A DNA stretch of 64,000 nucleotides from Dehalococcoidia bacterium (GTDB lineage: Bacteria; Chloroflexota; Dehalococcoidia; Lucifugimonadales; QGNO01), in assembly GCA_965261825.1 (NCBI GenBank), contig CBDHED010000002.1, positions 18,103-82,102 of the forward strand, written 5' to 3'. The stretch's first letter is position 1; each line of letters begins with the position of its first letter. The notes under the pieces are model-generated. The model worked only from the letters and a program-made list of their open reading frames with translations, did no database searches and was not told the origin of the DNA. Of this stretch, positions 2,896-22,325 are shown piece after piece. A program made the translations under genes and the position numbers.

Positions 2896-5315
2896 TTTGC
2901 CGCCTCCCGTTCTTTCGCGCTCGCCCGAAAATCCGCGGCCCGCACTATCGCCTCTAAGTACGCCAGCCTGAACGGGCCCAGCCATTCCAACAGCCCCAAG
3001 CTACGCTCAAGCCAGGAGCGTCGCCCGTTCTCACTCATCCCCATCTGAGCGATCGACATATCGAGCGTCGTTTCTGGGACGCGCAACTCCTTGCCCAAGT
3101 CCACCTCAGGCAGCGTCTCGGGCTCCGATATCGGATACCCCAGCAGCTTGGCAGCATCCGGGTTGCTGTCTCTATTGCTACTTCGCGCCCCCGGTAGCGA
3201 CCTTATGCCAAGCCTGACCAGGCCATGATGCGCTGCCGCTAGGTACGCCGTCAGGTCGCGTAACCTACCGTCGGGTACGTTGGCATGTTCGAGTAGCGCC
3301 AGCGCACTCCCGATCTCGTGTCGGAAGTGCCGGCGGTCCCCGCCGAACTTCCCGTAGCCAGGGCTTTTTGCCATCAGGTCATCTTCGCCAGGCGGGGTGG
3401 AGTCCTCCGGCAAGGATTTCCGCAGCATCTCCTGGAACGCAGAGTGGGCTTTGCCCGTATCGTGATAGAGAGCAGCCATCGCCACAGCTTCACGAATGCC
3501 CGGCTCAGTAAGCCATCTCGACAGCGCATCAAGTATCATACGCGCTTCGGCTTCGACATGGCGGGAGTGGTCGCTCAGAGTTACCCACTTCCTCTGGCAG
3601 GTGTTGGTAGTGTCGGATCCCCAGCCGTCCTCGGGCTGCGGGTCTTCGTCCAATAGAACAGGCTCCACCGGCTCTCTGCTGGAAGGTGCCCACCCGGTCT
3701 CCGGCGAGTACCCGCCCTGATTCGCGTCCAGCATCAACGTCATGCCGGGATGAATATCACGGAGTTGAATCCCCTGCCACTGGCTATCCAGGAAGTCCCA
3801 CCTCCACGCCCTGCGCTCGCTAGCCAAGTAGTCCTTAATGCCTTTGGGGCCGCCCTTTGAGCCGCCGATCGGCACATTCACCAACTCGTCATGGCGCGGC
3901 CGCGGCTCGGTTTCATTCGGGCCGCTCTCCGGAACGTCACGCCAGAACACCGAAACGCCCGTCTCCTCGGCCCCCCGGACATACTGTGACACGTCCAAGT
4001 AGCTTCCTGATAGGTCGGGCGTAGTATCGAACAGGCCCACCACGTCGCGCCTGCGGATGACGGCTAGGTGGTCGGCGTCCTTCATCTTATCGCCCAACTC
4101 TTCGAGAGCGGCAGGCCCAACGGACTTGCCTTCCAGGGACTCCATGATTCCGCGGGCGTGGTCAACGTCCTCCGCGTCATACGGGGCGGTATTCTTGCCC
4201 ACGTCGAACCATATGACGTCGCCACGCTCGCACTTGCCGGTGCGGTTGCACCGCCCGAAACGCTGGACCATCGACGCCCATGGCGCAAGCTCTGTTATCA
4301 GCGTCCGTGCCGAGATGTCCACCCCTGCCTCTATCGCCTGCGTCGCCACGACAATCCTGCCTTGACCATCGAGGGGTGCGGAGACGCCTTTCTGCTTGTC
4401 CTTGCGGTCCTTCTCTCGGAAGCGCGAGTGCACCAGCACCTTTTCGGTGTCCAGCGAGACCTTCTTCAAGGCTTCATAAACACCCTGCGCCCGCTCCACG
4501 GTATTCACTATCACCAATGTCAGCGTCCCGTGCTCGTGTTTTTCCGCAACGATACCGGCTATCTCTTTGGGCTTCGTGACGTCCACCGAGGCCTTGGCCG
4601 CGACCTTCTTGGCGTTGTGTCGCTCAGCGAGGCGGGCGTCCGCCAGATCGTCGTCGCCAAGTTTCACGATCTGATTCTCCGAGGGGGCAGGATGGTCGAT
4701 AGTCTCCAGCCAGTTGGGACGGACGGTCGCCGACATCCACATGCTTTGAGCGGGGCCGAAGGTCTCGAACTTGCCTCGCAGCCCGTCCATCTGCGTTGAC
4801 GTGGGCAGGCCGTTCGCCATGAGTTGCACCTCGTCCATCACCCAGAGGCAGTCGTTGTTCAGCAGGCCATACTCGACCGGCCACATGTTGTAGCCCATGC
4901 CGTAGCCGCGGTTCAGGGCGCGGGACAGCAGCATGTCCTGCGTACCGACGATGATGAAGGGCTTTTCAGGGTGTAGATACCACTGAGCGCGAGGCTCCCC
5001 TCCCATGAGTGTGACGAGGCCAACGTCGTCCGCTCTGCCCAGCTTTGTGAGCCAATCTCCAACCCGGGTCACAGTCTGCTCCACCAGCGTCCGCATTGGA
5101 AGGCAGTACGCCAGCCTTCGCGGAGTGGTGTCACGCATGGTAGGTTCCGGATGCTCGAAGCGCCTGTACATCCACCCCAGCACGGCCGCCTCCGTCTTCC
5201 CGGCACCTGTCGGAACCCGCACCAGACTGGGCAACTCCGGTCTCTCAGCAAGCTCAGCCTGGTACGGATATGGAGAAAACCCGGTTGCCTTATTGAAGAA
5301 ATCAGCGTAGGTCAT
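2892..5315 (-). CDS. cas3: Cas3 helicase with C-terminal HD nuclease domain
   Basis: Walker A PTGAGKTE and DEAH-like VMDEVQ are followed by a C-terminal HD signature (LYHDTGK, FRHEIGS, AAHHG). Helicase-then-HD order is typical of subtype I-U/I-G. Confidence 0.9.
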   Translation of the reverse strand: MTYADFFNKATGFSPYPYQAELAERPELPSLVRVPTGAGKTEAAVLGWMYRRFEHPEPTMRDTTPRRLAYCLPMRTLVEQTVTRVGDWLTKLGRADDVGLVTLMGGEPRAQWYLHPEKPFIIVGTQDMLLSRALNRGYGMGYNMWPVEYGLLNNDCLWVMDEVQLMANGLPTSTQMDGLRGKFETFGPAQSMWMSATVRPNWLETIDHPAPSENQIVKLGDDDLADARLAERHNAKKVAAKASVDVTKPKEIAGIVAEKHEHGTLTLVIVNTVERAQGVYEALKKVSLDTEKVLVHSRFREKDRKDKQKGVSAPLDGQGRIVVATQAIEAGVDISARTLITELAPWASMVQRFGRCNRTGKCERGDVIWFDVGKNTAPYDAEDVDHARGIMESLEGKSVGPAALEELGDKMKDADHLAVIRRRDVVGLFDTTPDLSGSYLDVSQYVRGAEETGVSVFWRDVPESGPNETEPRPRHDELVNVPIGGSKGGPKGIKDYLASERRAWRWDFLDSQWQGIQLRDIHPGMTLMLDANQGGYSPETGWAPSSREPVEPVLLDEDPQPEDGWGSDTTNTCQRKWVTLSDHSRHVEAEARMILDALSRWLTEPGIREAVAMAALYHDTGKAHSAFQEMLRKSLPEDSTPPGEDDLMAKSPGYGKFGGDRRHFRHEIGSALALLEHANVPDGRLRDLTAYLAAAHHGLVRLGIRSLPGARSSNRDSNPDAAKLLGYPISEPETLPEVDLGKELRVPETTLDMSIAQMGMSENGRRSWLERSLGLLEWLGPFRLAYLEAIVRAADFRASAKEREAAK

Positions 5316-5486: not shown

Positions 5487-8400
5487 GTTTCAATGGGGCC
5501 ATGACCTTTCGGTCATGGATACACACTGCCATTATAGCACATTCGCTCGTGGTACCTTGCTTCAATGGGGCCATGACCTTTCGGTCATGGATACACTGAA
5601 GGCCGGGGAGCAGCGCATGACGATTACGGTGCTTCAATGGGGCCATGACCTTTCGGTCATGGATACAAGGAGATATGAAAATCACGGTTGTAAACCGTTG
5701 GCGTAGCTTCAACGGCCGTGTTCCTTCTCGGCTTCAACTGGGGCGGCATGTTCCTTCTCGCTTCAATGGGGCCATGACCTTTCGGTCATGGATATGAAAA
5801 TCACGGTTGTAAACAGTTGGCGTAGCTTCAATGGGGCCATGACCTTTCGGTCATGGATACTTCAGGACGCCAAGATGACGTGCTTCAATGGGGCCATGAC
5901 CTTTCGGTCATGGATACGCCCGGGATCTCTGTGGGCTTCAATGGGGCCATGACCTTTCGGTCATGGATACTATGCAGTGCCGAGCCGGGACCCTGGCGCT
6001 TCAATGGGGCCATGACCTTTCGGTCATGGATACATGGCGAGTGTCCGACTCACGACACGGGCCTCGTCCGGCTTCAATGGGGCCATGACCTTTCGGTCAT
6101 GGATACTCGTCTATGCCAGTGCTTCAATGGGGCCATGACCTTTCGGTCATGGATACCCGAACAAAAGCTGCTTCAATGGGGCCATGACCTTTCGGTCATG
6201 GATACCGTGCCCGCTTCAATGGGGCCAGTGTCCGACCGGACGCACACGGTGCGTCGCCCGGCTTCAATGGGGCCATGACCTTTCGGTCATGGATACAAGG
6301 ATTTACTGTCGGCCCGGAAGTCTGCTTCAATGGGGCCATGACCTTTCGGTCATGGATACCTACGAGGCGCGACTCAACACGGGGGGCTCGTCCTGCTTCA
6401 ATGGGGCCATGACCTTTCGGTCATGGATACTGCCCATTCTGCTTCAATGGGGCCATGACCTTTCGGTCATGGATACCATCAGTTAGGACGCCACGCCGCT
6501 TCAATGGGGCCATGACCTTTCGGTCATGGATACTCTGTAACTGAGCCACCCAACACGAAGAGCGTTACGGGCTTCAATGGGGCCATGACCTTTCGGTCAT
6601 CAACGCGGTCAAAGGAGGACGCGGCTGCGAGAACGGCTTCAATGGGGCCATGACCTTTCGGTCATGGATACAGAGGGCTTCTCCGCCCGCCGACCGAGCT
6701 TCAATGGGGCCATGACCTTTCGGTCATGGATACGGCAACTCAGAGCTTGCCCTGCCCCTGCTTCAATGGGGCCATGACCTTTCGGTCATGGATACACCGG
6801 AAGGGCTACGCGTGTTTGCTGGATGGGGCCATGACCCCATGGATACTAGGAAGCGTACGATCCTACCCCGCTTCAATGGGGCCATGACCTTTCGGTCATG
6901 GATACGACGGTCCCAGCAGGTCTCCGCCTCTACTCCGCTTCAATGGGGCCATGACCTTTCGGTCATGGATACTTCACAAGGCGGATCGGAAGCGCAGACG
7001 CCGGCTTCAATGGGGCCATGACCTTTCGGTCATGGATACCGGGGGAGCCCATACGCGCCGGTGGGCAAGGGACTCCCGGCTTCAATGGGGCCATGACCTT
7101 TCGGTCATGGATACGAAGCGTGGGCCAACCCATCATGGGGCCGCTTTCGGTCATGGCCAGAAAGGAGCAGAGCGTATGCTGAACTAGGCTTCAATGGGGC
7201 CATGACCTTTCGGTCATGGATACGCTCGAACGTTCGCGGCGCGTCAAGCTTCAATCCATGACCTTTCGGTCGATACGCCGACCTCCGGGCCGACGCCGCC
7301 AGGGGGATGCTTCAATGGGGCCATGACCTTTCGGTCATGGATACGGCTGGCGTCCACTAGGGCCTTCCGCACAGTTCCGGCTTCAATGGGGCCATGACCT
7401 TTCGGTCATGGATACGGGCAAGATGGCCACACGCGGAAGGGTGACGTGAAGGTGCTTCAATGGGGCCATGACCTTTCGGTCATGGATACCAGTATGGGGT
7501 GGTCGACCATGGCCAGGCGCTCGTGCTTCAATGGGGCCATGACCTTTCGGTCATGGATACCGGAACAGGGTCAAGGCCCTGGCGACGTCGCCGGCGCTTC
7601 AATGGGGCCATGACCTTTCGGTCATGGATACTGGAGGTGCCGCCCGCCGCCTTGCGGGTCGCTTCAATGGGGCCATGACCTTTCGGTCATGGATACGCTG
7701 GGAATGATGAGTCCGGTATGGGCGCGTTTTCCCATGGACGGGAGAATTACATACAATCCGCCGGCTGGCCGCTGCTTCAATGGGGCCATGACCTTTCGGT
7801 CATGGATACCTGGGAGAGCTGCTAGCGGTGCTTCGCCGACAACGGGGACCTAGAGGGACGTGCTTCAATGGGGCCATGACCTTTCGGTCATGGATACCTG
7901 GGGAATACTACGATCTTCAAGGGGTTGGTACGAGCGTGGGTGCTTCAATGGGGCCATGACCTTTCGGTCATGGATACCAGGCTGGGGGCCGACGATCCCT
8001 CCGGCCAGCGATGTGTGCTTCAATGGGGCCATGACCTTTCGGTCATGGATACCGGAACAGGGTCAAGGCCCTGGCGACGGACCTGGCAGCTTCCCACGCT
8101 TCAATGGGGCCATGACCTTTCGGTCATGGATACTGGACAACCCCACCACGCCTTGCAGGGTGCCGAGGACGCCCCAGGGCTTCAATGGGGCCATGACCTT
8201 TCGGTCATGGATACCAGCTGAGCGGTGCGCCGACAACCTCTGCAACAATCACGGGCTTCAATGGGGCCATGACCTTTCGGTCATGGATACTGGGGAGTTA
8301 TCTTGCGGCGCCCAACGACCTTTCGCAAGGGGTTGGTTCCTAGGGGAGCGCTTCAATGGGGCCATGACCTTTCGGTCATGGATACCAGGAACTCGACATG

Positions 8401-9618
8401 CCGACGATCCCTCCGGCATACCGACGATATTGCAAACCATCGTTTGGCGCTTCAATGGGGCCATGACCTTTCGGTCATGGATACAGCGGACCGCCAGGGT
8501 GCCGAGAGCCTGCTTCAATGGGGCCATGACCTTTCGGTCATGGATACAGGGTGGCCGACTACACCTCTGCAACAATGAGACCTGGGCTTCAATGGGGCCA
8601 TGACCTTTCGGTCATGGATACATCCCCAACAATGGTTTGACATGACGAACGAGCCTACCTTTTGGAGCTTCAATGGGGCCATGACCTTTCGGTCATGGAT
8701 ACTCCTACATGGTGGACCACCAAGGCAACTGGTGCGGGCTTCAATGGGGCCATGACCTTTCGGTCATGGATACTTGTCAAAGTTCGGCTCGATCCGGTAA
8801 CGACGCGCCCGCTTCAATGGGGCCATGACCTTTCGGTCATGGATACGGAACAATACTGGCCGGAGATCGGCGGGAGCCCGCGCTTCAATGGGGCCATGAC
8901 CTTTCGGTCATGGATACGATACTCGTTACCATCTAGGGTTCTCGTACGTCCTGAATTTGAGCTTCAATGGGGCCATGACCTTTCGGTCATGGATACAGGA
9001 GTTCCCCTCCCGATGTTGTCCTTGTAACCTTTGCTTCAATGGGGCCATGACCTTTCGGTCATGGATACACCTTTTCTGCAACCCGCTGCTGCTTCAATGG
9101 GGCCATGACCTTTCGGTCATGGATACGCCTTTCCGCCCACTGCCGTGAGCATACAGAACGACATGCCGCTTCAATGGGGCCATGACCTTTCGGTCATGGA
9201 TACTTCGTACTGCGCATCGCCTCCTCGAACTTGGCCCCTGCGCTTCAATGGGGCCATGACCTTTCGGTCATGGATACGCGTTCGGCGTTCCCTTGTTCTC
9301 TGTGCGCTTCAATGGGGCCATGACCTTTCGGTCATGGATACATGCTGTATGACGAGGAACCCTACGCTTCAATGGGGCCATGACCTTTCGGTCATGGATA
9401 CCGCCCACCTAGTAGCGAGAAGGGTGAAGCTTATACCCGCTTCAATGGGGCCATGACCTTTCGGTCATGGATACTAGCCCCCATAATGATTGCTGCCGTC
9501 TGATTCAGTGGCTTCAATGGGGCCATGACCTTTCGGTCATGGATACCACCTACCAATAGGTGTCCGGCGGCTCTACTTCGTAGCTTCAATGGGGCCATGA
9601 CCTTTCGGTCATGGATAC
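5487..9618 (-). CRISPR. CRISPR array, about 62 repeat units (about 55 intact), 36-nt repeat
   Basis: Repeat as written on the + strand: GCTTCAATGGGGCCATGACCTTTCGGTCATGGATAC. Its reverse complement GTATCCATGACCGAAAGGTCATGGCCCCATTGAAGC has an 8-bp stem (CCATGACC/GGTCATGG) with a GAAA loop and ends in ATTGAAGC. Mutated or truncated units cluster at the low-coordinate end (first unit 5487 has C2->T; half repeats at 5706 and 5731). Together these place the array on the - strand with the leader at the high-coordinate end next to cas2. Confidence 0.97.
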
Positions 9619-9842
9619 CGTATCTAGAGAACAGTTTTCGACATAGAGAGCCGCCCATATGATGGAATTGCACGAGTTTTGCCGGATTGCGCCACTTATT
9701 AGTTGGCCGGAACCTCCCATCTCCATGTTTTACGCTCAAATCATGCGAGCGCTCACTAGTACGACGAATACCACCGGAGCGCTCGCAATGGAGAGCCAAG
9801 CGCGTACTCTGCCCTTGCGTACATCATACTAGGCCATGCCCC
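9619..9842 (-). promoter_or_regulatory. Putative CRISPR leader
   Basis: A 224-nt non-coding, comparatively AT-rich segment between the last perfect repeat (ends 9618) and the cas2 stop (9843). It lies on the side opposite the degenerate repeats. Confidence 0.6.
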
Positions 9843-10133
9843 TCAAACCACCAAGACCTCCACAGGGCTCGGCTTGAACTGACGGCCCAAGGTCTTCACT
9901 ACCTCCGCGCCACGGCCATCGGCAGGGCCTATGTCTATGACCAGCACTCTGTCCTCTTTGAGGTTGATGATTTCGGTCAGGGCTTCCTCCATGATGACTC
10001 GTTCTTTCGTTGAGAGGTCACAAACGAAGACCGAGTATTGCAGCGGGTCGCCAAACCCATTCATTTTCTTGAAGGTCCTGCGCAGCCGCTTGGCATCGCT
10101 CACGTCGTAGGCCACAATATATCGGTTGCGCAT
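9843..10133 (-). CDS. cas2: Cas2
   Basis: 96 aa. MRNRYIVAYDVSD...YSVFVCDL is the classic Cas2 N-terminal beta-strand/Asp motif. The gene starts 4 nt after the cas4/cas1 stop. Confidence 0.9.
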   Translation of the reverse strand: MRNRYIVAYDVSDAKRLRRTFKKMNGFGDPLQYSVFVCDLSTKERVIMEEALTEIINLKEDRVLVIDIGPADGRGAEVVKTLGRQFKPSPVEVLVV

Positions 10134-10136
10134 GGC

Positions 10137-11834
10137 TCACCTCGTAGTAAAGGCGGGGTATTTCTTCAACTCGCCCAGCAGAAAGCGCCCCAACAGACGC
10201 GCCTGAACCTCCATGACCCGGCGGTAGCTTATGGAGTAGTTGAACAGAGGGTGCGTTATCAGGGTGTCCAGTCTGCGCTCGAATGCTCTGATAACGGCCT
10301 TGCGTCCGCCCTCAGTCAGGGCCACGGCCCCAGACCTGTGAATGAAGTCCCCCTCCTTCAACTCCGCGTTGTTGAAGAGGGTCAGCGTAGCGGAATCTGC
10401 AACTATTGAGCGGAACTCCTCGGCGAGATCAAGGGCCAGTGCGGGCCGTCCATACTTGGGCTGATGGTAAAAGCCCATGTACGGATCGAATCCCACCGCC
10501 ACCGCCGATATCAGGGCTTGTTTGATCAACATCGAGTAGAGGAAGGACAACACCGCGTTCACCGGGTCCCTGGGCGGGCGGCGGTTGCGCGTGCGGAAGT
10601 CGAATGTGGATCGATCAGATTTAATCAGAGAAGCAAAGTTGGCAAAGTAGACGCGGGCAGCGGCCCCTTCTATGCCGAGCAGTGTTTGGAGCGAATCCGC
10701 AGACATGGCGCTTTTGCAAAGCCGTTCAATCTCCTGTAGAGCAGCCTGGGGCGAGTCGGGATGGTTCCTGCGAAGCATGACTCTGCTGTTTCGTAGTTTG
10801 GCGACGACGATGTCCCTTGCTATGGAGAGGGACGTGAGGCTGTCGCCGGCCGCGCGGAACTGGGCTATCCGCAGTTCGACGTTCTTGTGGCCCATACTCC
10901 AAGTTATGCCCTTCAGCCAACCTCCGTAGGTGAAGTGGCAGACGGGTATTGCCCGGTCCAAGAGCTCGCGCGTGGCCTGTGAGGTGACCTGAGTATTGCC
11001 AAAGATGGAGAGGCTGGACACGTCAAGGAGCCTGGCGCGGGCGACGACCTCGCGTTTAACGCTGACGGTGAGATTGTCGCCGGATTTTCCCACGACCCCG
11101 CCCTGGGTGGTCACGTACATGGGCAGAGCATCATCCCGCGCTGGGGCCATGCGACGAACGTCATCCGGCTTTACCACATGCCGGCTGCCTTTGAGGAAGG
11201 TAACCTCGTCAGGGAGGCAAATGCCAACGAGGGAGCACCGGGGACACTTTGGGCTGTCCTCAAGCGGAGGCGGGATTTTGCCGCCAACGGCCATCGCACG
11301 GGCGGCGTCCAGCATCTCCAGCGTCAGCGCCACCAGCGCATCGTCGAAGGGAACCCGGACGCGGCGCTTTGAAGCAACGAAGTAGAGGATGCCCTCGTCG
11401 CATTGGTACCCGCTGGCGCGCAGGAGAAGACCCTGAACGCACAGTTGCACCCGCTCGGGATCGTAGGCGTTGCCAGGGACGTCGGGTACGGTTCCGCGCT
11501 TGTAGTCTATGGGCGTGGCAGCCGGTCCCTGGGCCTCGACCAAGTCGATGCGCGCAATGGCGCCCAGAGTCTCATCCGACAGGAGGACGGAGCGAGCATG
11601 GATCTTCTCATGTTCGTCATCCTCGTCGGATTCCGGTTCCCTGAGATCGCCGGATGGCTGATCGACGCGCCGGTGCTGAAATCGGCCGTCCAGCGTATCC
11701 TCGCTGTGGGCAAACTCGCCCTGCACCCACTCCATGTAGCTCAGTCTGGGACAGTAAACGAACTCGTTGAGCATCCTGGCAGGTATAAGCTCAGGAACTC
11801 CAACCCCCCGGCTCCCATCGTCTCGGTCATTCAA
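10137..11834 (-). CDS. cas4-cas1: Cas4-Cas1 fusion protein
   Basis: 565 aa. The N-terminal Cas4-like part has FVYCPRLSYMEW and the cysteine cluster CPRCSLVGIC. The C-terminal ~330 aa is Cas1-like. The fusion is characteristic of I-U/I-G. The TTG at 11834 is uncertain; the next ATG is 19 codons downstream. Confidence 0.9.
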   Translation of the reverse strand: MNDRDDGSRGVGVPELIPARMLNEFVYCPRLSYMEWVQGEFAHSEDTLDGRFQHRRVDQPSGDLREPESDEDDEHEKIHARSVLLSDETLGAIARIDLVEAQGPAATPIDYKRGTVPDVPGNAYDPERVQLCVQGLLLRASGYQCDEGILYFVASKRRVRVPFDDALVALTLEMLDAARAMAVGGKIPPPLEDSPKCPRCSLVGICLPDEVTFLKGSRHVVKPDDVRRMAPARDDALPMYVTTQGGVVGKSGDNLTVSVKREVVARARLLDVSSLSIFGNTQVTSQATRELLDRAIPVCHFTYGGWLKGITWSMGHKNVELRIAQFRAAGDSLTSLSIARDIVVAKLRNSRVMLRRNHPDSPQAALQEIERLCKSAMSADSLQTLLGIEGAAARVYFANFASLIKSDRSTFDFRTRNRRPPRDPVNAVLSFLYSMLIKQALISAVAVGFDPYMGFYHQPKYGRPALALDLAEEFRSIVADSATLTLFNNAELKEGDFIHRSGAVALTEGGRKAVIRAFERRLDTLITHPLFNYSISYRRVMEVQARLLGRFLLGELKKYPAFTTR

Positions 11835-14710
11835 GTCGGCAACTCCGGCTTCTTGGAACCGTGGATGGACGGGTCACTCGCCAGCAGTGTTCTCAGCCTA
11901 GCTACGGCGGCCACGGCGGCTTCGCCGAGACCGAGCAGGTCTCGAACGACGCGCTCATCCAGCTCAATTCGCACGGGATCTACGGCGCACTGATGGAAGG
12001 ACTGAAACTTACGGTCCCTGAAGTCTTGCCAGATTGCTAGGGCCTCGTCGAGTTGCCAGGCTTTCAGCTTTCGGACATCAAGCGTTGTGAGGTTCTCCAA
12101 CATTCCCTTGTTGCCTTGTCCTCTACCTTCCTGGGCACTGTTGGAATGATCAGCGTGGAGCAGCATTCCGAGCGTGGAGTTACACCAGAGGGCCAAAGCT
12201 ATCTCTAGCCGGGACCTGATGACAGGATCATCCTCGTGTATGGACAATGTGTGCCACGCTCTCACCCCCAATGTCTTTATACTGGTATATGTTGTCATTA
12301 TCCGTTGTGCGTTGTATCTGACGTCAACGGTGATGTGAAGCGTGCCAGCTTGCGACCATATGGGCATGTGGTCAATGCCAGGCTTAGGGACAAGCCTGGC
12401 ATTCGGCTCTGAGGACATGCTCTGATGAACTGATGAGTCCAGGCTCCATATGGCGGGGAACTGAGCGTCTCCGTTCCAGCCGTGGTATCCATGAAACACC
12501 CCAAGCGAGCCTCGAATTCTCCGGTGCTGCGGTCCCACGTTACAGACTTCATCCATAACGGCAACCGGAACGTGGCCTGCAACCTGAGCGCCGTCCTCCA
12601 TCCAAAGTTCACCGCGCTCAAGGGCGGATGCGACCTGGCCCGTCACGACTCGCCTCCACCGGGCGGCCGTCCAAGGTCCCTCCCCTACAGGGCCGTCCAC
12701 GACCTCACCCCATTGTTCGCCGCCAACCATCAGAGGACTGCCTCCAATCGGCGGCCCGTCCGACCGCAACACGGGTGATGAAGCCGCCGCGTTCACGGCC
12801 CGGACGAGAGCCAGCGCATCCGTTTCCTGGTAGGGCGCACGCCATAGGTTGACGAATCTCCCACGTCTGGGCGCATGTTCACCCTCCTGGAGTCGGCGGG
12901 CCACGAGCAGCGCCTCTGCGATGGCGGTGTCGTATGACATGGAGAGGAGCGCAGGGTCGTGGGACGACACCACGAACTCAATCTCGTACCTGGAGGCGAG
13001 CATTTGGCGGACCTCTCGCCAAGACTCGCCGAACACTGCCGTCACCGGCAGCACCAGTGCGATGCGCCCTCCGGGGCTGACCATTCGGTCCGCTAGGACC
13101 GTGAAGGACGAAGCATGTCCGGCCATCTGATTGGCCGACGTGCCCTTCAGCAGAGCAGATGTCCGCTTCGCTATGGCCTGCTGGGATTCCATGTCGCCCT
13201 CCGGTAGGGAGAACACACGGGACAGAGCTTCCTCTTTCCCGCCATCGCTGCCCCGCCGGGTGAACGGGGGATTGCTGATGACCAAGTTGGCCCTGGGAAG
13301 CTGTACGATGCTTCCAGCACCGGTGGTCGCTCCTATCTGCTCTTCGGTGGCGGAGAAGAAGGACTGGACTTCAGATGATTCCAACCAGTCCAGCGAGCCA
13401 AGATAGACAGCCCGGGATTCCTTCCCTTGAAGGTTCTCCTGCGTCTCCGTACCCAATCTGAGGGTGTGAAGCTGCATCTGCTCGAACCTCACCGATGGGG
13501 ACATTGCCGCAAGGGTTGCAGCTGTCAGGTGAATGGCAGCCTGCACCACGTCAGCCCCGACAATGACCTTCTCGACCAGGGCCTGGTGGAGAGACGAGTC
13601 ATCGGAATCGTCGGAAGCCACAGCTGCGTGGTTCTGGACTATCTGCCGGTAGGCGGCCATGAGGAGAGTCCCTGTCCCACACGCCGGGTCAACCACACGC
13701 AAGCTGGAAATTCCCTCTGAGTCGCTCCAAGCAACGTGGGACCATCTGGCTGGGTGCAGAGCTAGCCCCGCAAGGAGAGTGGATGCCGGGATGCTCGTAT
13801 AGAAGGCCGCCAGCAGCTTCCGCTCCGAGATCAGCCGGTTGAATATCCGCCCGGCCAGGTCGTGGCGTCCCACTGCTCCCATGCCCAGCAACGCAGCGGC
13901 AGTCCTGGCGCACTCGCCGAGCACCGACGCAGCTTCAACTTCGGAAAGCTCCTGAACCACGTCCCGCGCCATGCTGAATATGGGATAGTAGTCTATGCTC
14001 AGGATGTGCTCCCATACCTGCAACAGCGTCATGCGCGAGAAGCGCCCGTCTCGCATCGCCGCGCTCACCGGCTGGAACGCCACCTCGTTGCTGGCCAGCC
14101 GGTCCTGGAAGACCATGGCGTTGATGACGACCAGCGCGGCCATGTTGGCCGCCTCCTCGCTGGGATCGGCGTCAAAAATCTTCGAGACCCTCCCCAACGT
14201 CCCGGGGGAGGAGTAGAGCCGGGAACCGGCTCGCCTCGCTCCCTCATCGAGGACGTCAACTGCTTCGTCGAGGTCGCCAGCTGGCGGGGTTGTCCGGTGC
14301 ACCGTATCCCCAAGCTCTATTGCAGTCCCACTGAGCTTGGGGCCGGAAGTGCCGTCTATGCGCCATTCCTGCCACACCAGCGTCGCGCCTGCCATGCGCT
14401 CGTACAGGTGTTGCTGGCTCGTCGAGCGCAGCCTTCCCGGAACCGTGACGGCGAAGACGTTCTGAACCTTCTGACCGTCTATCTCCATACCAAGGCGGGA
14501 GAGGGCATCTGCTTCCACGGTCAAGGCAGGTTCAAGCTCGGTCTCGAGGATCACAGGACCTTCGGACAGACGAACGATGATGTCCGGACGCCTGCCGCCG
14601 TGCAGCGTCTCAGCAACTGCCGACAGGCCGCACCGCTCCCGGAGGAACCGGGCCAGCGCATCGTTGATGATGCTTTCGTGGCTGCGGTCTTTGCCATTGA
14701 CGGTTGTCAT
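11831..14710 (-). CDS. Restriction-modification-like N6-adenine DNA methyltransferase (type IIG/IIL-like single polypeptide)
   Basis: 959 aa. SAM motif I is VVDPACGTGTLL, catalytic motif IV is LVISNPPFTRRG, and an FYTS motif lies upstream. The N-terminal RRPDIIV...GPVILETELEP resembles a PD-(D/E)xK core but lacks the canonical Lys. A long C-terminal region is consistent with a target-recognition domain. Its stop overlaps the cas4/cas1 start region. Confidence 0.7.
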   Translation of the reverse strand: MTTVNGKDRSHESIINDALARFLRERCGLSAVAETLHGGRRPDIIVRLSEGPVILETELEPALTVEADALSRLGMEIDGQKVQNVFAVTVPGRLRSTSQQHLYERMAGATLVWQEWRIDGTSGPKLSGTAIELGDTVHRTTPPAGDLDEAVDVLDEGARRAGSRLYSSPGTLGRVSKIFDADPSEEAANMAALVVINAMVFQDRLASNEVAFQPVSAAMRDGRFSRMTLLQVWEHILSIDYYPIFSMARDVVQELSEVEAASVLGECARTAAALLGMGAVGRHDLAGRIFNRLISERKLLAAFYTSIPASTLLAGLALHPARWSHVAWSDSEGISSLRVVDPACGTGTLLMAAYRQIVQNHAAVASDDSDDSSLHQALVEKVIVGADVVQAAIHLTAATLAAMSPSVRFEQMQLHTLRLGTETQENLQGKESRAVYLGSLDWLESSEVQSFFSATEEQIGATTGAGSIVQLPRANLVISNPPFTRRGSDGGKEEALSRVFSLPEGDMESQQAIAKRTSALLKGTSANQMAGHASSFTVLADRMVSPGGRIALVLPVTAVFGESWREVRQMLASRYEIEFVVSSHDPALLSMSYDTAIAEALLVARRLQEGEHAPRRGRFVNLWRAPYQETDALALVRAVNAAASSPVLRSDGPPIGGSPLMVGGEQWGEVVDGPVGEGPWTAARWRRVVTGQVASALERGELWMEDGAQVAGHVPVAVMDEVCNVGPQHRRIRGSLGVFHGYHGWNGDAQFPAIWSLDSSVHQSMSSEPNARLVPKPGIDHMPIWSQAGTLHITVDVRYNAQRIMTTYTSIKTLGVRAWHTLSIHEDDPVIRSRLEIALALWCNSTLGMLLHADHSNSAQEGRGQGNKGMLENLTTLDVRKLKAWQLDEALAIWQDFRDRKFQSFHQCAVDPVRIELDERVVRDLLGLGEAAVAAVARLRTLLASDPSIHGSKKPELPT

Positions 14711-14886
14711 GCCAGGAGTGAATCCCCCTCCGCTTAATCTATGACTTCAATAGGGTCTACGTTCTCCATTGCTGCCTTTGCTAATTCGTCCTGCTCAACA
14801 GCTCATCGCATCGTCTGCGTACCCAGAGAACCGATATCGTCCCGTCCCCCGACCAATGGCACTCCGGGACGGATGACTTCGACTTC

Positions 14887-15183
14887 CTACGCCGTGGGCT
14901 GCGGCTGGTAGCGTTCGACCCGTATTCGGTCTTCACCCTTACGCGCTTGTGCTAGGTCGTAGGAAGTCTGCCGGCGCAGCCAGAAATCGGCACTGGACCA
15001 TCCAGCCTTCTCAAGGCGAATGGCCATGTCGGGCGAGATCGCGGCGTGGCAGTTCAATACCCGAGAAAGGGTGTGGCGGGCAACGCCCAGAACCTCCGCC
15101 GCCTCGGTTACACTTAGCCCAAGGGGTTCCAGGCAGTTTTCCCTGATGCCCCGGCCAGGATGGGGTGGATTCTTCATAGCCAT
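14887..15183 (-). CDS. higA: HigA-family antitoxin (XRE HTH)
   Basis: [37 protein letters not shown]...[26 protein letters not shown] matches the HigA antidote pattern. It lies directly downstream of higB. Confidence 0.8.
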
Positions 15184-15198: not shown

Positions 15199-15477
15199 CT
15201 AGTGATAGTCGGCTAGATCGACGTCATACACGTCACCACCTTCAAATCGGAAGGTGATCCGCCAGTTACCCGAAATCGAAATGCTCCACGATCCTCTCCG
15301 GTCACCCCTGAGGGGATGCAGTCTGTACCCCGGCAAATCAAGTTCACTCGGCTTGCTGGCAACATCCAGGTCCGCCAGGGCGAGAGTAATCCGATCCAGT
15401 TGGTCGGCGCCTATCCTGCTGGGGTCGCCTCGCTCATAGAGCCGCCTCAGTCTTCGATGGCGAAACGACCTAATCAT
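15199..15477 (-). CDS. higB: HigB-family toxin (plasmid maintenance system killer, RelE/ParE fold)
   Basis: MIRSFRHRRLRRLYERGD...GYRLHPLRGDRRGSWSISISGNWRITFRFEGGDVYDVDLADYH is the typical HigB pattern. I use the internal ATG at 15477 (92 aa) rather than the 141-aa ORF-track start. Confidence 0.8.
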   Translation of the reverse strand: MIRSFRHRRLRRLYERGDPSRIGADQLDRITLALADLDVASKPSELDLPGYRLHPLRGDRRGSWSISISGNWRITFRFEGGDVYDVDLADYH

Positions 15478-15977
15478 AGAAGGATTATACCGTGTTCCGG
15501 TACACCTATCAATAACTTCACTGTCATTCCCAACTCTTCCACACCACTTTGTGTATCCTTCAGTGCCCCAGGCACCGCTCCAGTGCCTCGTTGCGACGCG
15601 GCTGACGTGCCGCCACCGAGCCAACCCTGAACCCTAACCCCTGCTTCAACGCCTCCCGCACACGCCAGGAACAGCCTCCCGTCTTCATGCACGAGGCTAC
15701 GGCCTTGAGATATATGCCGAGACCGTCGCCGCATCCCTGTTTCCCTTTCTCCCACACTAGTTCGTGCAGCATCGTCATGAGCCTCAGGTGGTGAACGTCC
15801 TCAACGCCTCCGCTCTCTCCGATGACCGGCTTCATCGTCTGCCACACCTTCCCGCCCATGAAAGGAACGAAACGAAAAGGGATATACAGGTTTTCTGCCC
15901 ACCACCTTCCCTATGCGCGTGGAAGGAACCCAGACCCCGAATTGCTTGCTCCGATGGTAGCAGTGCCGGGCCGGAGC

Positions 15978-16787
15978 CTACTTCCACCACAGGCCGAGGG
16001 TGAGTATGCGTCGCAGGAGGCGCACCCGCCTCGCCCCGGCCAGTTCCCCGCGGGCCTCCGTCAGAGCGTTTTGTCGCCACCGCAGGTGGTCCGTCCTTCC
16101 CGCTTCATCCAGCTGCTCCGTCTCCGGGGGCAATGTCAGGCGGAAATCATGGATCATCGCTATCTCCAACTCCCAACGGCGCACCCCGGCTCTAGCCTGG
16201 TCAACCCGGCTGCCCTTCGCGTCTCCGCCGGTTCGCACCTGCCGCCACCCGGCCACCAGAGCAGCGGCCGGGCCAAAGGCGTGGGCTTCGTCGGGCTGCT
16301 CTTCCAGGGTGACCACCCCGGCGGGCAGCCCGTGACCCCGCCGGGGTGGACGCCACACGGAGGGCTGGTCATCGCCCGCCACCGGTCCAGACTCGCCACG
16401 CTGCTGCGCCTCCCTCATCAGTTGGGAGACCCTTCGCCCCGACTCTTCCAGTTGCCCGGCCTGGGTCTCCACCACTTCCCGCAGTCCCCGGGCTTCCTCC
16501 TCCAACTCGGCTATCCTTTGCCGCAGAGTCTCTACCTCGTCCGCCACGCCGTCATTGCCAACTTCAACCCCGCCGTCATCGCCGGTACCCACTGAGTCCC
16601 GGAACTCCTCCAGCGCCCTTCGCATCCGCCGGGACACACACCGGGAATCGTAGCAGGCCATCATGGTGCGGTAGTTCACCCCCAGTGCCTCGGCTGCGGC
16701 AACCCGACCCCGCTGCTCGACCAGGGCGTCCAGCAGGTCCAATAGGGGGGCATCCGATAGAGGGATATCCCGCTCGCCGACACTCAT
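15978..16787 (-). CDS. Hypothetical coiled-coil protein
   Basis: ORF 15978..16835. ATG at 16787 is preceded by AAGGAGG at 8 nt. It contains a central heptad-like acidic stretch (LRQRIAELEEEARGLREVVETQAGQLEE). I recognise no family. Confidence 0.5.
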   Translation of the reverse strand: MSVGERDIPLSDAPLLDLLDALVEQRGRVAAAEALGVNYRTMMACYDSRCVSRRMRRALEEFRDSVGTGDDGGVEVGNDGVADEVETLRQRIAELEEEARGLREVVETQAGQLEESGRRVSQLMREAQQRGESGPVAGDDQPSVWRPPRRGHGLPAGVVTLEEQPDEAHAFGPAAALVAGWRQVRTGGDAKGSRVDQARAGVRRWELEIAMIHDFRLTLPPETEQLDEAGRTDHLRWRQNALTEARGELAGARRVRLLRRILTLGLWWK

Positions 16788-16931
16788 TTCCACGGCCTCC
16801 TTCGCTAAGAGAGTACAATTCCTACAGTACAACACCTACAATAAATCCGACACAGGCCGTCAACAAAATCCCGGCCCAACCCACCTTCCCCAACCCTCTA
16901 CCCTGCCTGATTCCCGTTGGAAACCAGCCCG

Positions 16932-16946
16932 ATTGCATTATGCAAT
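16932..16946. promoter_or_regulatory. Perfect 15-bp palindrome ATTGCATTATGCAAT in a divergent intergenic region
   Basis: Seen directly: 7-bp arms around a central T, between the divergently transcribed genes ending at 16787 (-) and starting at 17171 (+). It may be an operator or an oriT-type site. Confidence 0.3.
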
Positions 16947-17170
16947 GCAATCTAAATCTCCTTACAGGGCTGCCACTGCGAAAGTCGGCTCGGACCGATT
17001 GTAGTCTCAGCCATTCCCGGGTGGCCGGAAACTGACGTCCGAACCTTGCGCCACCCGCCTCCATCCGGTAGTATGAGAACTAATGTTCTTCCGACATCCC
17101 GAGCTGGGCAAATCACGAGGCCGCGGCCGCCCTGAATCCGGCGGCGGTCCGGCCCAAAGGAGGGAGCGAC

Positions 17171-19789
17171 GTGAAACAGAGTCTTATCAAGCGAATCTTC
17201 GGAGGCGAACCCCAACCGGCCACGCGGCTGCTGGCGGTCACGCCGCCCCGTACCGGGGAGCGCACCCTGCTGGGGGTGGAGAACCTGCTGGGGTCCATCG
17301 CCGTCCCCGAACCCTTCTCCCTGGAGATCGCCGGGGACGCCGCCGGCGTCACTCTGCTGGCCCGCTGCCGGGAGGGCTCCTTCGTGAAGCAGCAGCTGGG
17401 CGTCCACTATCCCCAGGCAAGGGTGGGCGACGTTTCCTCCGAGGACGATCCGTTGCGGCTGGCCGAGGGGGAGCAGGCCTGGTCCATGAACCTGCGGCTC
17501 CAGGGGCCGGAGTACCTGCCCCTGCGCACCTTCCGTGACGACGACCTGCTGGACCAGGGGTCCGACCCCCTCATCTCGGTCATCGGCTCCCTGTCCGACC
17601 TGGAGGAGGGGGAGCGGTTGGTGGCCCGGATGAAGCTGCTGTCCCTGGGGCCGGACTGGTCCCGCCAGCACCTGGAGAAGGCCGACCGGAGGCCCCAACC
17701 CAACCCGTCCAGTTCCCCTCACAACGCCGATGTCCAGATTCACCGCAACGACGGGGTGACCATGGCCATCCTGGGGTTGATCGCCCTGCCGAGCTTGATG
17801 GGCTACGTCTGGATTCAGCGCGGGGAGACCTGGAAGGCGGTCCTGTTGGGCCTGGGGATGGCGTCGCTGGCCTCCCTGGTGGGCTGGGCCTGGTGGCGCA
17901 TCAAGAAGGCCCGCTCCGGTGGCAAGCACCAGGACCCGCTGCTCATCAAGGAGAAGGTCTCCCGCATCGCCTACGAGGCCGAGCTAGAGGTCACCGCCGT
18001 CCTGTCGCAGCACGGGACCGAGAGCCGGGCCAGGGAGCTGCTGCGCAACGTGGCCTCGGCCTACCGGGGCTACGACAACCCCGCCGGGGCCAGCTTCAAG
18101 GCGGGGAAGGTGCGGCCCGCCGTTCCGGCAACCGAGCCGTGGCCACCCCGCCGGGGGATGTTCCAGAGCCGGAACGTCCTGGGGGGCAGGGAGGCGGCGG
18201 CCCTGTGGCACCCCCTGGGGGCCGGAGACGACCTGCCCATGGTGGCCCGCTCCGGGGCCAGGGTGCTGTTCCCCTCGGCCAAGGGCGTCGCCGGCGGCGC
18301 TCACGTGGGGGACACGGTGGCCAGCAGGCCGCGGAAGATTCACTTCCAGGACGACCTGCTGCGCCGACACCACCTCTACGTGGCCCGCACCCGCATGGGC
18401 AAGTCCACGCTGATGCACCACGTTGTCACCCACAAGCTGCGGGAGAAGGCTGCGGGCAGGGACGGCGACGCCATCGTGGTCATAGACCCCCACCGTGACC
18501 TGGTGGACGCCCTGTTGCGGCACGTGCCCGCAGAGATCGCCGATAAGGTGCGGCTGATAGACCTTGGCGACGAGGATCGGGTTCCGGGCATCAACCTTCT
18601 GGACACCAAGGTCTTCGCCGACCGGGACCGCACCGCCGACTCGGTGGTGAGGATTGCCAAGGGCGTATGGGAGCAGTGGGGACCCCGGATGCAGTCCGTC
18701 CTGGAGCACACCGTCAAGAGCCTCCACGAGTACAACGCCCACCCCGACACCAGGGAGGACGAGCAGCTCACCATCCTGGACGGGCAACGGCTGCTGGCGG
18801 AGCCGGAGTTCCGCAAGCAGGTGCAGCGGCGGGTGGGCGACCCCTACGTGCTGGGGTGGTGGGCGCGGGACTTCGCAAGCTGGACCCGCCAGTTCCGGTC
18901 CGAGGTCACCGCGCCGGTGCAGACCCGCCTGGCCTACTACGCATCGTCCAAGAAGGCCCGGGCTATCCTGGGGCAGCGCCGCTCCACCATTGACCTGCGG
19001 GAGGTCATCGCCGGCGGCGGCGTGCTGCTGGTGTCCACCTCTCAGGCCACGGCGGGACCGGAGGTCTCGGCCCTGGTGGGCGCGTCGTTGCTCAACTTGG
19101 TGGACTCGGTGATCAGGGAGCAGGGCAGGCTGCCGCTCGACCAAAGGCGCGGCGCGTTGGTGGTGGTGGACGAGATGCAGGCCATGCCCGGCGTCGATTA
19201 CGAGTCCATGCTCAGCGAGCTGGGCAAGTTCGGGGCCAGCTTCATCCTGGCCACCCAGAGCCTGGCCAAGCTGGCTGACCTCTCCCCCACCATGCAGGAC
19301 ACGCTCCTGGCCAACGTGGGGTGCCTGGCGGTGTTCCAGGTGGCGGCCTCCGACGCCCGGCAGCTCATCGGGGAGCTGGACCGGGAGCGGTTGACCGAGG
19401 AGGACCTGGTGTCCCTGCCCGTGCACCACTGCTACGTGCGGGCCACCGTGGACGGGGAGCGGCTGGCGACCTACTCCATGAGGGTGAGGAAGCCGGAGGA
19501 CGGAGACCCATTGGCGGCGGAGCGCGTCCGGGCCGGAACGGCGGCCTACGCCACCCCGGCGGAGACCATCGCCTCCCAGGACGCCGAGGCCCAGCGGCTG
19601 GTGCAGGAGTTCCGGGACAAGCTGGAGGAAATTGAAGGCGACGGGGCCTCCGAGCATCCGGCCCCCGGCTCTGCAAAGTCGTCCCCCAACGGCGTCGCCG
19701 GGGAAGCCGCTCCGGGGAAGAGGAAGCGGCCGAGGCGGCGGCGCGAGGGAACCCCGGAACCCGCCGAAGCCGGTGACGGGAGTGAATGA
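17171..19789 (+). CDS. Membrane-anchored FtsK/HerA/TraD-superfamily P-loop ATPase (putative coupling/DNA-translocation protein)
   Basis: 872 aa. GTG start follows AAAGGAGGGA. Two hydrophobic segments are present (AILGLIALPSLMGYVWI, AVLLGLGMASLASLVGWAWW). Walker A is ARTRMGKSTLM, Walker B is ALVVVDEMQ, and VVIDPHRDL is also present. The C-terminal tail is acidic/basic. Confidence 0.6.
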   Translation: MKQSLIKRIFGGEPQPATRLLAVTPPRTGERTLLGVENLLGSIAVPEPFSLEIAGDAAGVTLLARCREGSFVKQQLGVHYPQARVGDVSSEDDPLRLAEGEQAWSMNLRLQGPEYLPLRTFRDDDLLDQGSDPLISVIGSLSDLEEGERLVARMKLLSLGPDWSRQHLEKADRRPQPNPSSSPHNADVQIHRNDGVTMAILGLIALPSLMGYVWIQRGETWKAVLLGLGMASLASLVGWAWWRIKKARSGGKHQDPLLIKEKVSRIAYEAELEVTAVLSQHGTESRARELLRNVASAYRGYDNPAGASFKAGKVRPAVPATEPWPPRRGMFQSRNVLGGREAAALWHPLGAGDDLPMVARSGARVLFPSAKGVAGGAHVGDTVASRPRKIHFQDDLLRRHHLYVARTRMGKSTLMHHVVTHKLREKAAGRDGDAIVVIDPHRDLVDALLRHVPAEIADKVRLIDLGDEDRVPGINLLDTKVFADRDRTADSVVRIAKGVWEQWGPRMQSVLEHTVKSLHEYNAHPDTREDEQLTILDGQRLLAEPEFRKQVQRRVGDPYVLGWWARDFASWTRQFRSEVTAPVQTRLAYYASSKKARAILGQRRSTIDLREVIAGGGVLLVSTSQATAGPEVSALVGASLLNLVDSVIREQGRLPLDQRRGALVVVDEMQAMPGVDYESMLSELGKFGASFILATQSLAKLADLSPTMQDTLLANVGCLAVFQVAASDARQLIGELDRERLTEEDLVSLPVHHCYVRATVDGERLATYSMRVRKPEDGDPLAAERVRAGTAAYATPAETIASQDAEAQRLVQEFRDKLEEIEGDGASEHPAPGSAKSSPNGVAGEAAPGKRKRPRRRREGTPEPAEAGDGSE

Positions 19790-21447: not shown

Positions 21448-21510
21448 CGCGCTCAAACACTCCTGTCACAACATGAGGCCGTTTGGCGATTAGCAGAAGA
21501 CGGAAGACGG

Positions 21511-21560
21511 TTGACAGGACCGCAGCCGATGCCGCAATATCTTGGTAAGACTCGATAACA
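21511..21560 (+). promoter_or_regulatory. Putative promoter/5'-UTR module, copy 1 (TTGACA ... GTAAGACTCGATAACA)
   Basis: TTGACA at 21511-21516, CAATAT 18 nt downstream, then GTAAGACTCGATAACA at 21545-21560. A paralogous module lies at 22262-22312. Confidence 0.35.
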
Positions 21561-21564
21561 AGAG

Positions 21565-21828
21565 GTGAATATGTCAAGAACGACCAAGACCATCACCTTC
21601 TCTTTGCCGCCGGAGATGGCAGATCGGGTGGACGAGGCGATGAAACAGCAGGGGCGGTCCAGGAGCGAGTTCCTTCGCGAGGCGGTGCTCCGCTACATCG
21701 AGGAGTGCGAATGGAGACAGCTGCTCCAGTACGGAGAGGAGAGGGCCAGGGAGAAGGGCATCGGCCCTGAGGACGTGGCCGGTCTGGTGGAAGAGTACCG
21801 GGCCGAGGTCAACTCCTCCCGTACATGA
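21565..21828 (+). CDS. Ribbon-helix-helix (CopG-like) antitoxin
   Basis: KTITFSLPPEMADRVDEAMKQQGRSRSEFLREAVLRYI is a typical RHH motif. It overlaps the downstream PIN gene by 4 nt. The start may be the ATG at 21571. Confidence 0.75.
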   Translation: MNMSRTTKTITFSLPPEMADRVDEAMKQQGRSRSEFLREAVLRYIEECEWRQLLQYGEERAREKGIGPEDVAGLVEEYRAEVNSSRT

Positions 21829-22229
21829 GAGTTGTCCTCGACACCAACGTCATCGTCTCCGGTCTGAACTTCCCCGGCAACGAGCGCCTCGTCCTCGAAC
21901 TGGCTCTCAGGGGACGGTTCGGGCTGTGCCTGTCACCCTTCATCCTGGAAGAGGTTGCCGGGGTGCTGGGGCGCAAGTTCGATTGGACTGAAGAACGCTC
22001 GTCCCAGGCTCTCAGGGCACTGAGAGGCGCCGCCACTGTCATCGACCCACGGCGGCTCCCGGAGATCATCGAGGGCGGCCACGCTGACAACCGCATCTTG
22101 GAGTGCGCTGTGGAGGCTTCCGCCGACTACGTGGTCACAGGCGACAGGCGGCATCTGCTTCCCCTTGGGGAGCATCGGGGCGCGAGAATCCTCAACGCCC
22201 CCCGGTTCCTGTTAGTGCTGGTGGGGTGA
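21825..22229 (+). CDS. PIN-domain toxin
   Basis: The N-terminus MRVVLDTNVIVSGL, then ...ADNRILECAVEASADYVVTGDRRHLL, shows acidic PIN residues in the expected spacing. Confidence 0.8.
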   Translation: MRVVLDTNVIVSGLNFPGNERLVLELALRGRFGLCLSPFILEEVAGVLGRKFDWTEERSSQALRALRGAATVIDPRRLPEIIEGGHADNRILECAVEASADYVVTGDRRHLLPLGEHRGARILNAPRFLLVLVG

Positions 22230-22261
22230 TGTTTGCTGCTGCGAGCACGCGCTCCGTTCCC

Positions 22262-22312
22262 TTGACAACGGCCTGCCGGATGCCTCAGAATACAGAGTAA
22301 GACTCGGTAACA
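22262..22312 (+). promoter_or_regulatory. Putative promoter/5'-UTR module, copy 2 (TTGACA ... GTAAGACTCGGTAACA)
   Basis: TTGACA at 22262-22267 and GTAAGACTCGGTAACA at 22297-22312, 14 nt before the recombinase ATG. It has the same layout as 21511-21560. Confidence 0.35.
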
Positions 22313-22325
22313 GAAAAAGGGCAGC

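Follow-up and report, generated by a model that had tools for sequence, protein, structure and literature searches.

A type IIG-like restriction-modification gene of a putative mobile cassette abuts the type I-G cas4/cas1 gene in a Dehalococcoidia bacterium

Does a restriction-modification (RM) gene that runs directly into a CRISPR adaptation gene take part in adaptation, or does it only lie beside it? The question is raised by a 64,000-nt stretch of DNA from a Dehalococcoidia bacterium (contig CBDHED010000002.1 of assembly GCA_965261825.1, positions 18,103 to 82,102), in the following called the window, in which the gene for a 959-aa protein (MT959; 14710..11831, ATG start) overlaps the cas4/cas1 fusion gene of a type I-G system; coordinates of the block from higB to cas8 refer to the minus strand throughout. 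The original prediction placed this RM-like gene at the head of the adaptation operon and considered three explanations, namely the generation or marking of prespacer substrates, protection of self DNA during acquisition, and simple adjacency within a defense island. The analysis presented here supports the last of these: MT959 is most probably a mobile type IIG-like RM gene, the end gene of a mobile element that also carries the toxin-antitoxin genes higBA, which was placed against cas4/cas1 by rearrangement, and the operon-like junction is real but incidental.

The junction and the neighborhoods of related genes

The junction (CCGGAGTTGCCGACTTGAATGACC) is as tight as predicted. The codons CCG ACT TGA close the 959-aa open reading frame (ORF), and the TGA (11833-11831) overlaps the TTG (11834-11832) of cas4/cas1 (11834..10137; 565 aa; NF049935, 776 bits versus a cut-off of 560), resulting in a 4-nt TTGA overlap. 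The next in-frame ATG of cas4/cas1 is found at position 11774, 56 nt from the end of the 959-aa gene, where about 57 nt had been estimated. The sequence PELIPAR, which is located upstream of this first internal methionine, is conserved in Cas4/Cas1 homologs, and no other start codon lies between it and the TTG; therefore, translation truly begins at TTG 11834, and the 4-nt overlap is genuine. A GGAG sequence is located 8 nt upstream of the TTG and belongs to the family-conserved K-K-P-E-L coding sequence. In agreement with the prediction, the minus strand showed neither a terminator-like nor a promoter-like site between the two genes.

The neighborhoods of related genes, however, do not support a link to adaptation. 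Relatives with 28-98% identity were collected from 138 loci, which comprise 52 loci on one-genome-per-species GTDB contigs, all from Dehalococcoidia or Chloroflexota, 80 metagenome and four viral contigs found with a family alignment, and two contigs with the closest non-orthologous relatives (90-91% identity). At least 2 kb of downstream sequence was present in 88 of the 138 loci. Searches with tblastn and phmmer detected Cas4/Cas1 and Cas2 in a single one of these loci, L025, which is also the only one with an array. L025 is the ortholog of the locus in a sister strain, with 100% identity to the window over most of 17.5-12.8 kb and 94-100% identity through cas4/cas1-cas2. A cas or array neighborhood thus does not recur across lineages. 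The refuting outcome named by the original prediction, that homologs are almost never cas-linked, is therefore what the census returned, and the closest relatives of Cas4/Cas1 (~80% identity; L053, L054 and L055) agree with it, since they occur without such a gene. In L053 and L055, the genes are arranged in the order cas3-cas8-cas7-cas5/6-cas4/1-cas2-array, and the effector genes of L054 are divergently transcribed; canonical type I-G loci hence lack the gene, as had been stated. Given these neighborhoods, MT959 is not regarded as a cas accessory.

Two further searches accompanied the census. A type-independent k-mer repeat screen flagged the loci L002, L014, L020, L042, L048 and L052. The candidate arrays in L002, L020 and L048 were rejected, as Tandem Repeats Finder identified them as plain tandem repeats of 72, 27 and 95 nt, respectively, which lack variable spacers, and the flagged repeats in L014, L042 and L052 comprise only three to four copies. 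An exact look-up of the Cas4/Cas1 cluster P0121 (98% identical) returned no record. In the literature, the CRISPRicity preprint names an N6-methylase only as a neighbor label in a figure legend.

The sequence around the junction suggests how the overlap could have arisen. The junction segment (11834..11795) covers the TTGA overlap and approximately the first 13 codons of cas4/cas1. The first 13 residues of Cas4/Cas1 in the window (MNDRDDGSRGVGV) are unrelated to the N-termini of its homologs, and nucleotide similarity to these homologs starts only at position ~11793. The 16 nt past the TGA (ATGACCGAGACGATGG) instead resemble the post-stop sequence in L006, L009 and L033, and blastn homology to L006 and L033 extends to positions 11820 and 11815, respectively. 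Furthermore, the ending CCGACTTGA, which is the source of the TTG, is also present in L014 and L046, neither of which has a cas neighbor. Together, these observations suggest a loss of the native 5' end of cas4/cas1, with an ORF that now opens in the last nucleotides of the cassette, whose tail may by chance already have contained the start codon and the ribosome-binding site.

The higBA-associated cassette and its strain variants

MT959 is preceded by a HigBA toxin-antitoxin pair, which is encoded by higB (15477..15199; RelE-like toxin, 92 aa; Pfam PF05015 HigB-like_toxin, 52.5 bits versus a cut-off of 27) and higA (15183..14887; helix-turn-helix antitoxin, 98 aa; TIGR02607, 100 bits versus a cut-off of 47.7). 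The end of higA at 14887 and the ATG at 14710 are separated by the predicted 176 nt (14711..14886), a spacer conserved among some of the loci. Neither a promoter nor an RNA family was detected there, and an Rfam scan of positions 5000-16000 yielded only sub-threshold CRISPR-DR16 repeat matches, none of them in the gap or at the junction. A strong promoter-like site was seen only upstream of higB, where a sigma-70-like promoter (TTGATA-17-TATAAT; 15512..15484; 11/12 matches) likely drives higB-higA-MT959 and, with it, cas4/cas1-cas2. The operon-like arrangement proposed originally is thus retained, with higB-higA-MT959-cas4/cas1-cas2 as the probable unit.

The association of higBA with the 959-aa gene is recurrent. 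In 18 of the 52 genome loci, a higB-higA pair with 84-98% identity immediately precedes the gene; apart from L025, higB is found at this position in 16 genome loci (84-95% identity), and higA in 17 other genome loci (86-98% identity). A different higBA pair in L026 (9212-9791) and a different higA in L034 (9462-9812), which are only ~30% identical to those of the window, occupy the same position, a hint that toxin-antitoxin pairs and this enzyme family may be linked repeatedly, possibly for regulation. When the flanking ORFs of 135 loci were clustered, no other widely shared neighbor family was found besides higBA; the gene stands alone in that no R, M or S partner gene recurs. At the DNA level, homology to the other loci sets in at the higB promoter (~15514) or no more than 20 nt from the ATG (~14690-14727). 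It ends between 11815 and 11880, in most loci at 11831-11852 and thus within about 20 nt of the stop codon.

Genes of mobile elements accompany the unit. In the Dehalococcoidia set, a serine recombinase is encoded a few kb upstream in L002, L007, L011, L012, L015, L035 and L036; in six of these loci it is 70-89% identical, over its N-terminal domain, to the truncated copy in the window, and in L036 only a 70-aa fragment matches, with 94% identity. A replication-relaxation gene immediately precedes higB in L002, L007, L011, L012, L036 and L051. At least one of the two genes is found upstream in nine genome loci besides the window, and L001, L002, L007, L011, L012 and L036 have both. Several genomes contain two or three copies of the 959-aa gene. 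Insertions of 1.2-1.4 kb split the copies in L030, L035 and L038, some copies are interrupted by an insertion sequence (IS), and those in L044, L047, L050 and L051 are truncated. Plasmids from Nitrosospira, Sulfuricystis, Aminobacter and a haloarchaeon encode more distant relatives (28-31% identity), and two of these plasmids were typed as mobilizable. Based on the associated higBA and recombinase genes, the ends of homology, the multiple and decayed copies and the plasmid-borne relatives, the 959-aa gene is regarded as cargo at the edge of a mobile cassette. Two loci, L031 (1135-4020) and L050 (694-2292), additionally carry a distant paralog with 30-32% identity, which lies 6-8 kb from the close homolog on the opposite strand.

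The strain variants of the locus provide a second line of evidence. An exact look-up of the Cas2 sequence led to two further contigs with the same junction, L144 and L145. The array of L145 matches that of the window, with which it has spacers 1-3 and several later ones in common, and the array of L144 matches that of L025 in a run of older spacers, which occur in the same order. No spacer of the window and L145 arrays is found in the L025 and L144 arrays despite almost identical flanks, which shows fast spacer turnover after formation of the junction. At the leader end, spacers 1-6 of L025 and spacers 1-3 of L144 are unique to the respective array and precede the shared block. In both of these loci, the RM gene carries a single T insertion (L025:12120-12150), which changes GGACGGA-AGC to GGACGGATAGC and creates a TAG at codon 708 in the frame of L025; the insertion does not lie in a homopolymer and was found in two independent assemblies. 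Since L025 and L144 are truncated and yet gained different leader-end spacers, adaptation probably does not need the 959-aa gene. If the truncation predates the split of L025 and L144, as parsimony suggests, these spacers were acquired in the absence of an intact RM protein, which speaks, albeit indirectly, against a requirement of the gene for the function of the linked CRISPR system. Other differences concern mobile elements: in L144 (2806-4131), a DDE transposase gene, as part of an IS, lies between higA and the RM gene and another IS is located inside the array, and the array of L025 is followed by IS21 and a CD-NTase-like gene, not by cas3.

The strains also differ within the RM gene itself. 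A C-terminal patch of ~900 nt, which covers the target-recognition part (12790..11850), is only 78-89% identical to L145, L025 and L144, whereas its surroundings are 97-100% identical. As the patch diverges while the flanks of the sister strains are identical, a recombinational swap of the target-recognition part is indicated; its donor is absent from the collected loci, among which L030 is the best match (85%). Such a C-terminal swap is ordinary behavior for restriction enzymes.

Downstream of cas4/cas1, the adaptation module is completed by cas2 (10133..9843; 96 aa; best PADLOC match Cas2g model, E 1e-28), which adjoins a 224-nt leader (9842..9619; ~95% identical to the L025 leader) and an array with 56 copies of a 36-nt repeat (9618..5487). 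These are followed by cas3g (5315..2892; NCBIfam Cas3g, 789 bits) and cas8g/csx17 (2985..673; NCBIfam Cas8g1/Csx17, 656 bits), an unusual order for type I-G, as the adaptation genes and the array lie upstream of cas3-cas8 and not after the cas5/6 gene that ends the effector operon. The spacers of the window did not match the rest of the window, which had been searched for self-targeting. The repeats are almost all perfect, but the spacer lengths are irregular (10-93 nt), whereas L145, with the same leading spacers, has regular spacers of 35-40 nt; the array of the window probably reflects a noisy consensus over a mixed population rather than a true structure.

Upstream of higB, the remainder of the putative mobile element (15978..23123) contains orf285, a TrwB/HerA-like coupling ATPase (17171-19789), a replication-relaxation protein (19786-21447), a PIN protein and the serine recombinase (22326-23123), whose gene is interrupted by an IS21-type element and ends where this element begins (23125-25404). 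In the IS21 element, IstB forms the C-terminal part of a 759-aa ORF, whose middle is of oddly low complexity, and a separate 210-aa ORF overlaps this long one, which suggests frameshifts or assembly errors. The G+C content rises to 0.64-0.70 at positions 16000-26000, compared to 0.53-0.60 elsewhere in the window, and this rise coincides with the block of ATPase, relaxase, recombinase and IS21 genes and is consistent with a foreign origin. The window further encodes a PLD-like nuclease (29188-30045), a GmrSD type IV restriction enzyme (30343-32133) and a second large methylase (43736-46885; 1049 aa), which is Eco57I-like and has only motif I in common with the 959-aa protein. With GmrSD, the PLD nuclease, the second methylase and IS21, the window represents an island of defense genes and mobile elements.

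The 959-aa protein

Both catalytic regions of the 959-aa protein are conserved. The N-terminal PD-(D/E)xK-like domain (aa 1-140; 14710..14291) contains the residues E12, D43, E56 and E58, the latter three as part of a PD43...E56-T-E58 arrangement. The methyltransferase domain (about aa 335-625; 13708..12836) carries motif I, DPACGTG (residues 341-347, within VVDPACGTGT at 339-348), ahead of motif IV, NPPF (480-483), the order that is characteristic of a gamma-class N6-adenine methyltransferase. In the family alignment A1 (47 members, 27-66% identity), E12, D43, D341, C344, G345, G347 and N480-P-P are invariant, and E56 and E58 are at least 90% conserved. The motifs noticed in the original prediction are thus not chance matches, and both the PD...ExE site and the methylase motifs are under selection.

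Searches of curated profile libraries yielded no more than weak matches at the level of motifs. It passes the Pfam model N6_Mtase (25.9 bits versus a cut-off of 20.4), lies just below the cut-off of MmeI_Mtase (25.5 versus 27 bits) and has no match to the Pfam model Eco57I. The NCBIfam PglX models reach 15-24 bits with cut-offs of 400-900, and PADLOC models for type I, IIG and PglX give E-values of 1e-8 at best, with 4.5e-8 over ~100 residues for IIG. Profile matches to BrxX/PglX, DrdV, BseCI, BsaXI and MmeI fall at the methylase motifs. The family is large: a word-indexed search matched more than 2000 proteins, of which the top 120 have 74-91% identity, and a 50%-representative library contains 953 clusters with E<1e-30, which are mostly full-length (930-1020 aa) and ~30-35% identical. 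Names were not on record for ten family cluster members, and plasmid records label relatives only as 'N-6 DNA methylase' or 'hypothetical'.

An AF2 model built on A1 (pLDDT 88.5, pTM 0.91) has BpuSI (PDB 3s1s) as its best Foldseek match over the whole model (E 4e-18; 1063 alignment columns including gaps), followed by BrxX/PglX, DrdV, CamA, BseCI, BsaXI and LlaBIII. The matches to BpuSI, DrdV and BsaXI agree with the architecture of solved members, in which a C-terminal target-recognition region lies in the same chain. When the N-terminal 150 residues were modeled alone (AF2, pLDDT 93), the order of secondary structure elements fits PD-(D/E)xK and nearly all Foldseek matches are proteins with a restriction-endonuclease fold, although none reaches E<1e-3; the best is the R2 RLE domain (E 0.008, probability 0.98), and others are the Cas4 protein SSO0001, AF1548, RecB nuclease, EndoMS, McrC, Hjc, HincII and BpuSI (rank 28). 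We therefore read the 959-aa protein as a divergent single-chain restriction-modification enzyme with predicted cleavage activity, and call it type IIG-like rather than type IIG because its scores fall short of the curated models for type IIG (Pfam Eco57I or MmeI_Mtase, PADLOC IIG).

Alternatively, with the adjacency equally accidental, the protein could be a methylase only, that is, an orphan or anti-restriction methyltransferase on mobile elements with a non-cutting N-terminal domain. The catalytic lysine is indeed missing, as noted originally, the fold matches of the N-terminal domain are weak, and the target-recognition region is unusually conserved between species (70-90% identity). On mobilizable plasmids, distant relatives whose annotation goes no further than N-6 DNA methylase lie beside ArdC-like and PRTRC genes, and a genome can contain several paralogs. 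On the Aminobacter plasmid pUSP4 (L140) and the Sulfuricystis plasmid pSTJ1 (L141), for instance, genes for zincin-like (ArdC-type), DUF5710, DUF3560 or PRTRC proteins adjoin the relatives (~28% identity); plasmid regions of the ArdC/PRTRC type often carry genes that are expressed early after conjugative transfer. However, E12, D43, E56 and E58 are invariant or nearly so in 47 members with ~30% identity, as expected for an active site under selection. The closest overall fold is that of an active type IIG enzyme, and the C-terminal patch swap is typical of the specificity shuffling of restriction enzymes. ExE is also found in place of ExK in active enzymes such as BamHI, and the missing lysine is thus no evidence of inactivity. 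Taken together, a methylase-only protein seems rather unlikely, and the earlier suggestion of an inactive nuclease is weakened by the family-wide conservation of D43, E56 and E58.

Origin of the arrangement and comparison with known systems

In the favored scenario, that of a mobile RM gene placed beside the cas genes by rearrangement, the cassette would consist of the higB promoter, higB, higA and, as its last gene, the RM gene, often preceded by the replication-relaxation gene and a large serine recombinase gene, and would spread among genomes of Dehalococcoidia and other Chloroflexota. In one lineage, its end would have come to lie against the 5' end of cas4/cas1 via integration, rearrangement or deletion, whereby the native start and the upstream region of cas4/cas1 would have been lost; translation would now begin at the TTG that overlaps the TGA of the RM gene, and the first few codons would be derived from the tail of the cassette. 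HigBA and the RM enzyme would be expressed from the higB promoter, with HigBA stabilizing or regulating the cassette and the enzyme presumably methylating host sites and cutting unmodified incoming DNA, as type IIG enzymes do. As cas4/cas1-cas2 have no room for an upstream promoter of their own, transcription from the cassette probably continues into them, and translation would re-initiate at the overlapping TTG. Co-transcription of the RM gene with cas4/cas1-cas2 is thus likely, as a by-product of position.

Several points weigh against this scenario. The similarity of the 16 nt past the stop codon is short and alone would not prove a chimeric 5' end, although it suggests one. The junction is unusually tight, with its 4-nt overlap, the GGAG 8 nt upstream of the TTG and the lack of a terminator, and it was kept in all four strain variants, which leaves room for some benefit of co-expression. 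No att sites were found, and the boundary of the mobile element is deduced from the ends of homology alone. Many of the metagenome contigs are short, which limits the census, and the sister-strain sequences stem from metagenome assemblies, in which single-base indels call for caution. Finally, the canonical lysine is replaced by glutamate and the isolated N-terminal domain has no Foldseek match below E 0.008, so that the nuclease activity is putative.

It is also conceivable, albeit improbable, that the adaptation genes were captured by the mobile higBA-RM operon in a functional sense, being placed under its toxin-antitoxin-regulated promoter and coupled translationally and functionally to the type IIG-like enzyme. 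Acquisition would then be switched on together with restriction and possibly fed by cleavage products, and the arrangement would represent a recent, lineage-specific exaptation rather than a conserved system.

A dedicated adaptation accessory, which as the first gene of the operon makes or marks prespacers or protects self DNA during acquisition, would also agree with the 4-nt stop/start overlap, the missing terminator and the retention of the junction in four strain variants, and in type II-A systems restriction cleavage has been reported to stimulate spacer acquisition. This proposal is nevertheless very improbable. Only one of 138 loci, the ortholog, is cas-linked, the nearest Cas4/Cas1 relatives do without the gene, truncated alleles coexist with fresh leader-end spacers, and the TTGA ending pre-exists in loci that lack cas genes. 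Moreover, the Geobacter type I-U/I-G Cas4/1 fusion is reported to introduce functional spacers, and the abstract of that study names no such methylase (PMC6547450). It is extremely improbable that the protein belongs to a multi-gene defense system, BREX (PglX-like) or type I/ISP, with overlooked partners: BrxX/PglX and LlaBIII are among its best sequence and structure matches, but the PglX models score far below their cut-offs, only higBA recurs as a neighbor family in 135 loci and the protein lacks a helicase or ATPase domain.

The finding leaves the view of CRISPR adaptation unchanged. It removes a tempting false lead, since the neighborhood census and the homology boundaries point to a rearrangement scar behind an operon-perfect junction of RM gene and cas4/cas1, and it documents a large, unnamed and divergent type IIG-like family with an ExE nuclease motif, which in Dehalococcoidia occurs with higBA on a recombinase-bearing element. 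The locus may also serve as a small natural example of cas genes whose start codon, and probably also their promoter, was newly supplied by an adjacent mobile element.

Compared to known systems, the protein is most similar to type IIG enzymes such as BpuSI and to the type IIL enzymes MmeI and DrdV. Like them, it is a single chain of about 900-1000 aa; it shows the BpuSI-like order of a predicted N-terminal PD-(D/E)xK-type nuclease, a helical linker, a gamma-class N6-adenine methylase and C-terminal target recognition, and a partner gene is needed in neither case. However, the sequence identity is only ~12%, the nuclease site reads D...ExE instead of D...ExK, and the family, represented here by an enzyme predicted from sequence and model, shows an unusual degree of conservation, which extends to the C-terminal region, and is accompanied by higBA. 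PglX/BrxX of BREX systems is similar in its methylase core and in its large scaffolds, both helical and target-recognition. The differences are the nuclease-like domain at the N-terminus of the 959-aa protein, its PglX scores, which fall far short of the family cut-offs, and the absence of brxA/B/C or pglZ neighbors in the 135 loci. Canonical type I-G (formerly I-U) loci, for instance that of Geobacter sulfurreducens (PMC6547450), resemble the locus of the window in the cas4/cas1 fusion, cas2, leader, array, cas3g and cas8g/csx17, whereas here a mobile RM gene, and not cas5/6, precedes cas4/cas1, whose start codon and first codons are apparently non-ancestral. No name for the pairing of higBA with a type IIG-like enzyme was found in the libraries searched. 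The closest parallel to the whole arrangement is provided by toxin-antitoxin-linked RM cassettes, with which the unit shares a higBA pair with its own strong promoter directly upstream, recombinase and relaxase genes nearby, and an occurrence in many genomic contexts in several copies, some of which are decayed.

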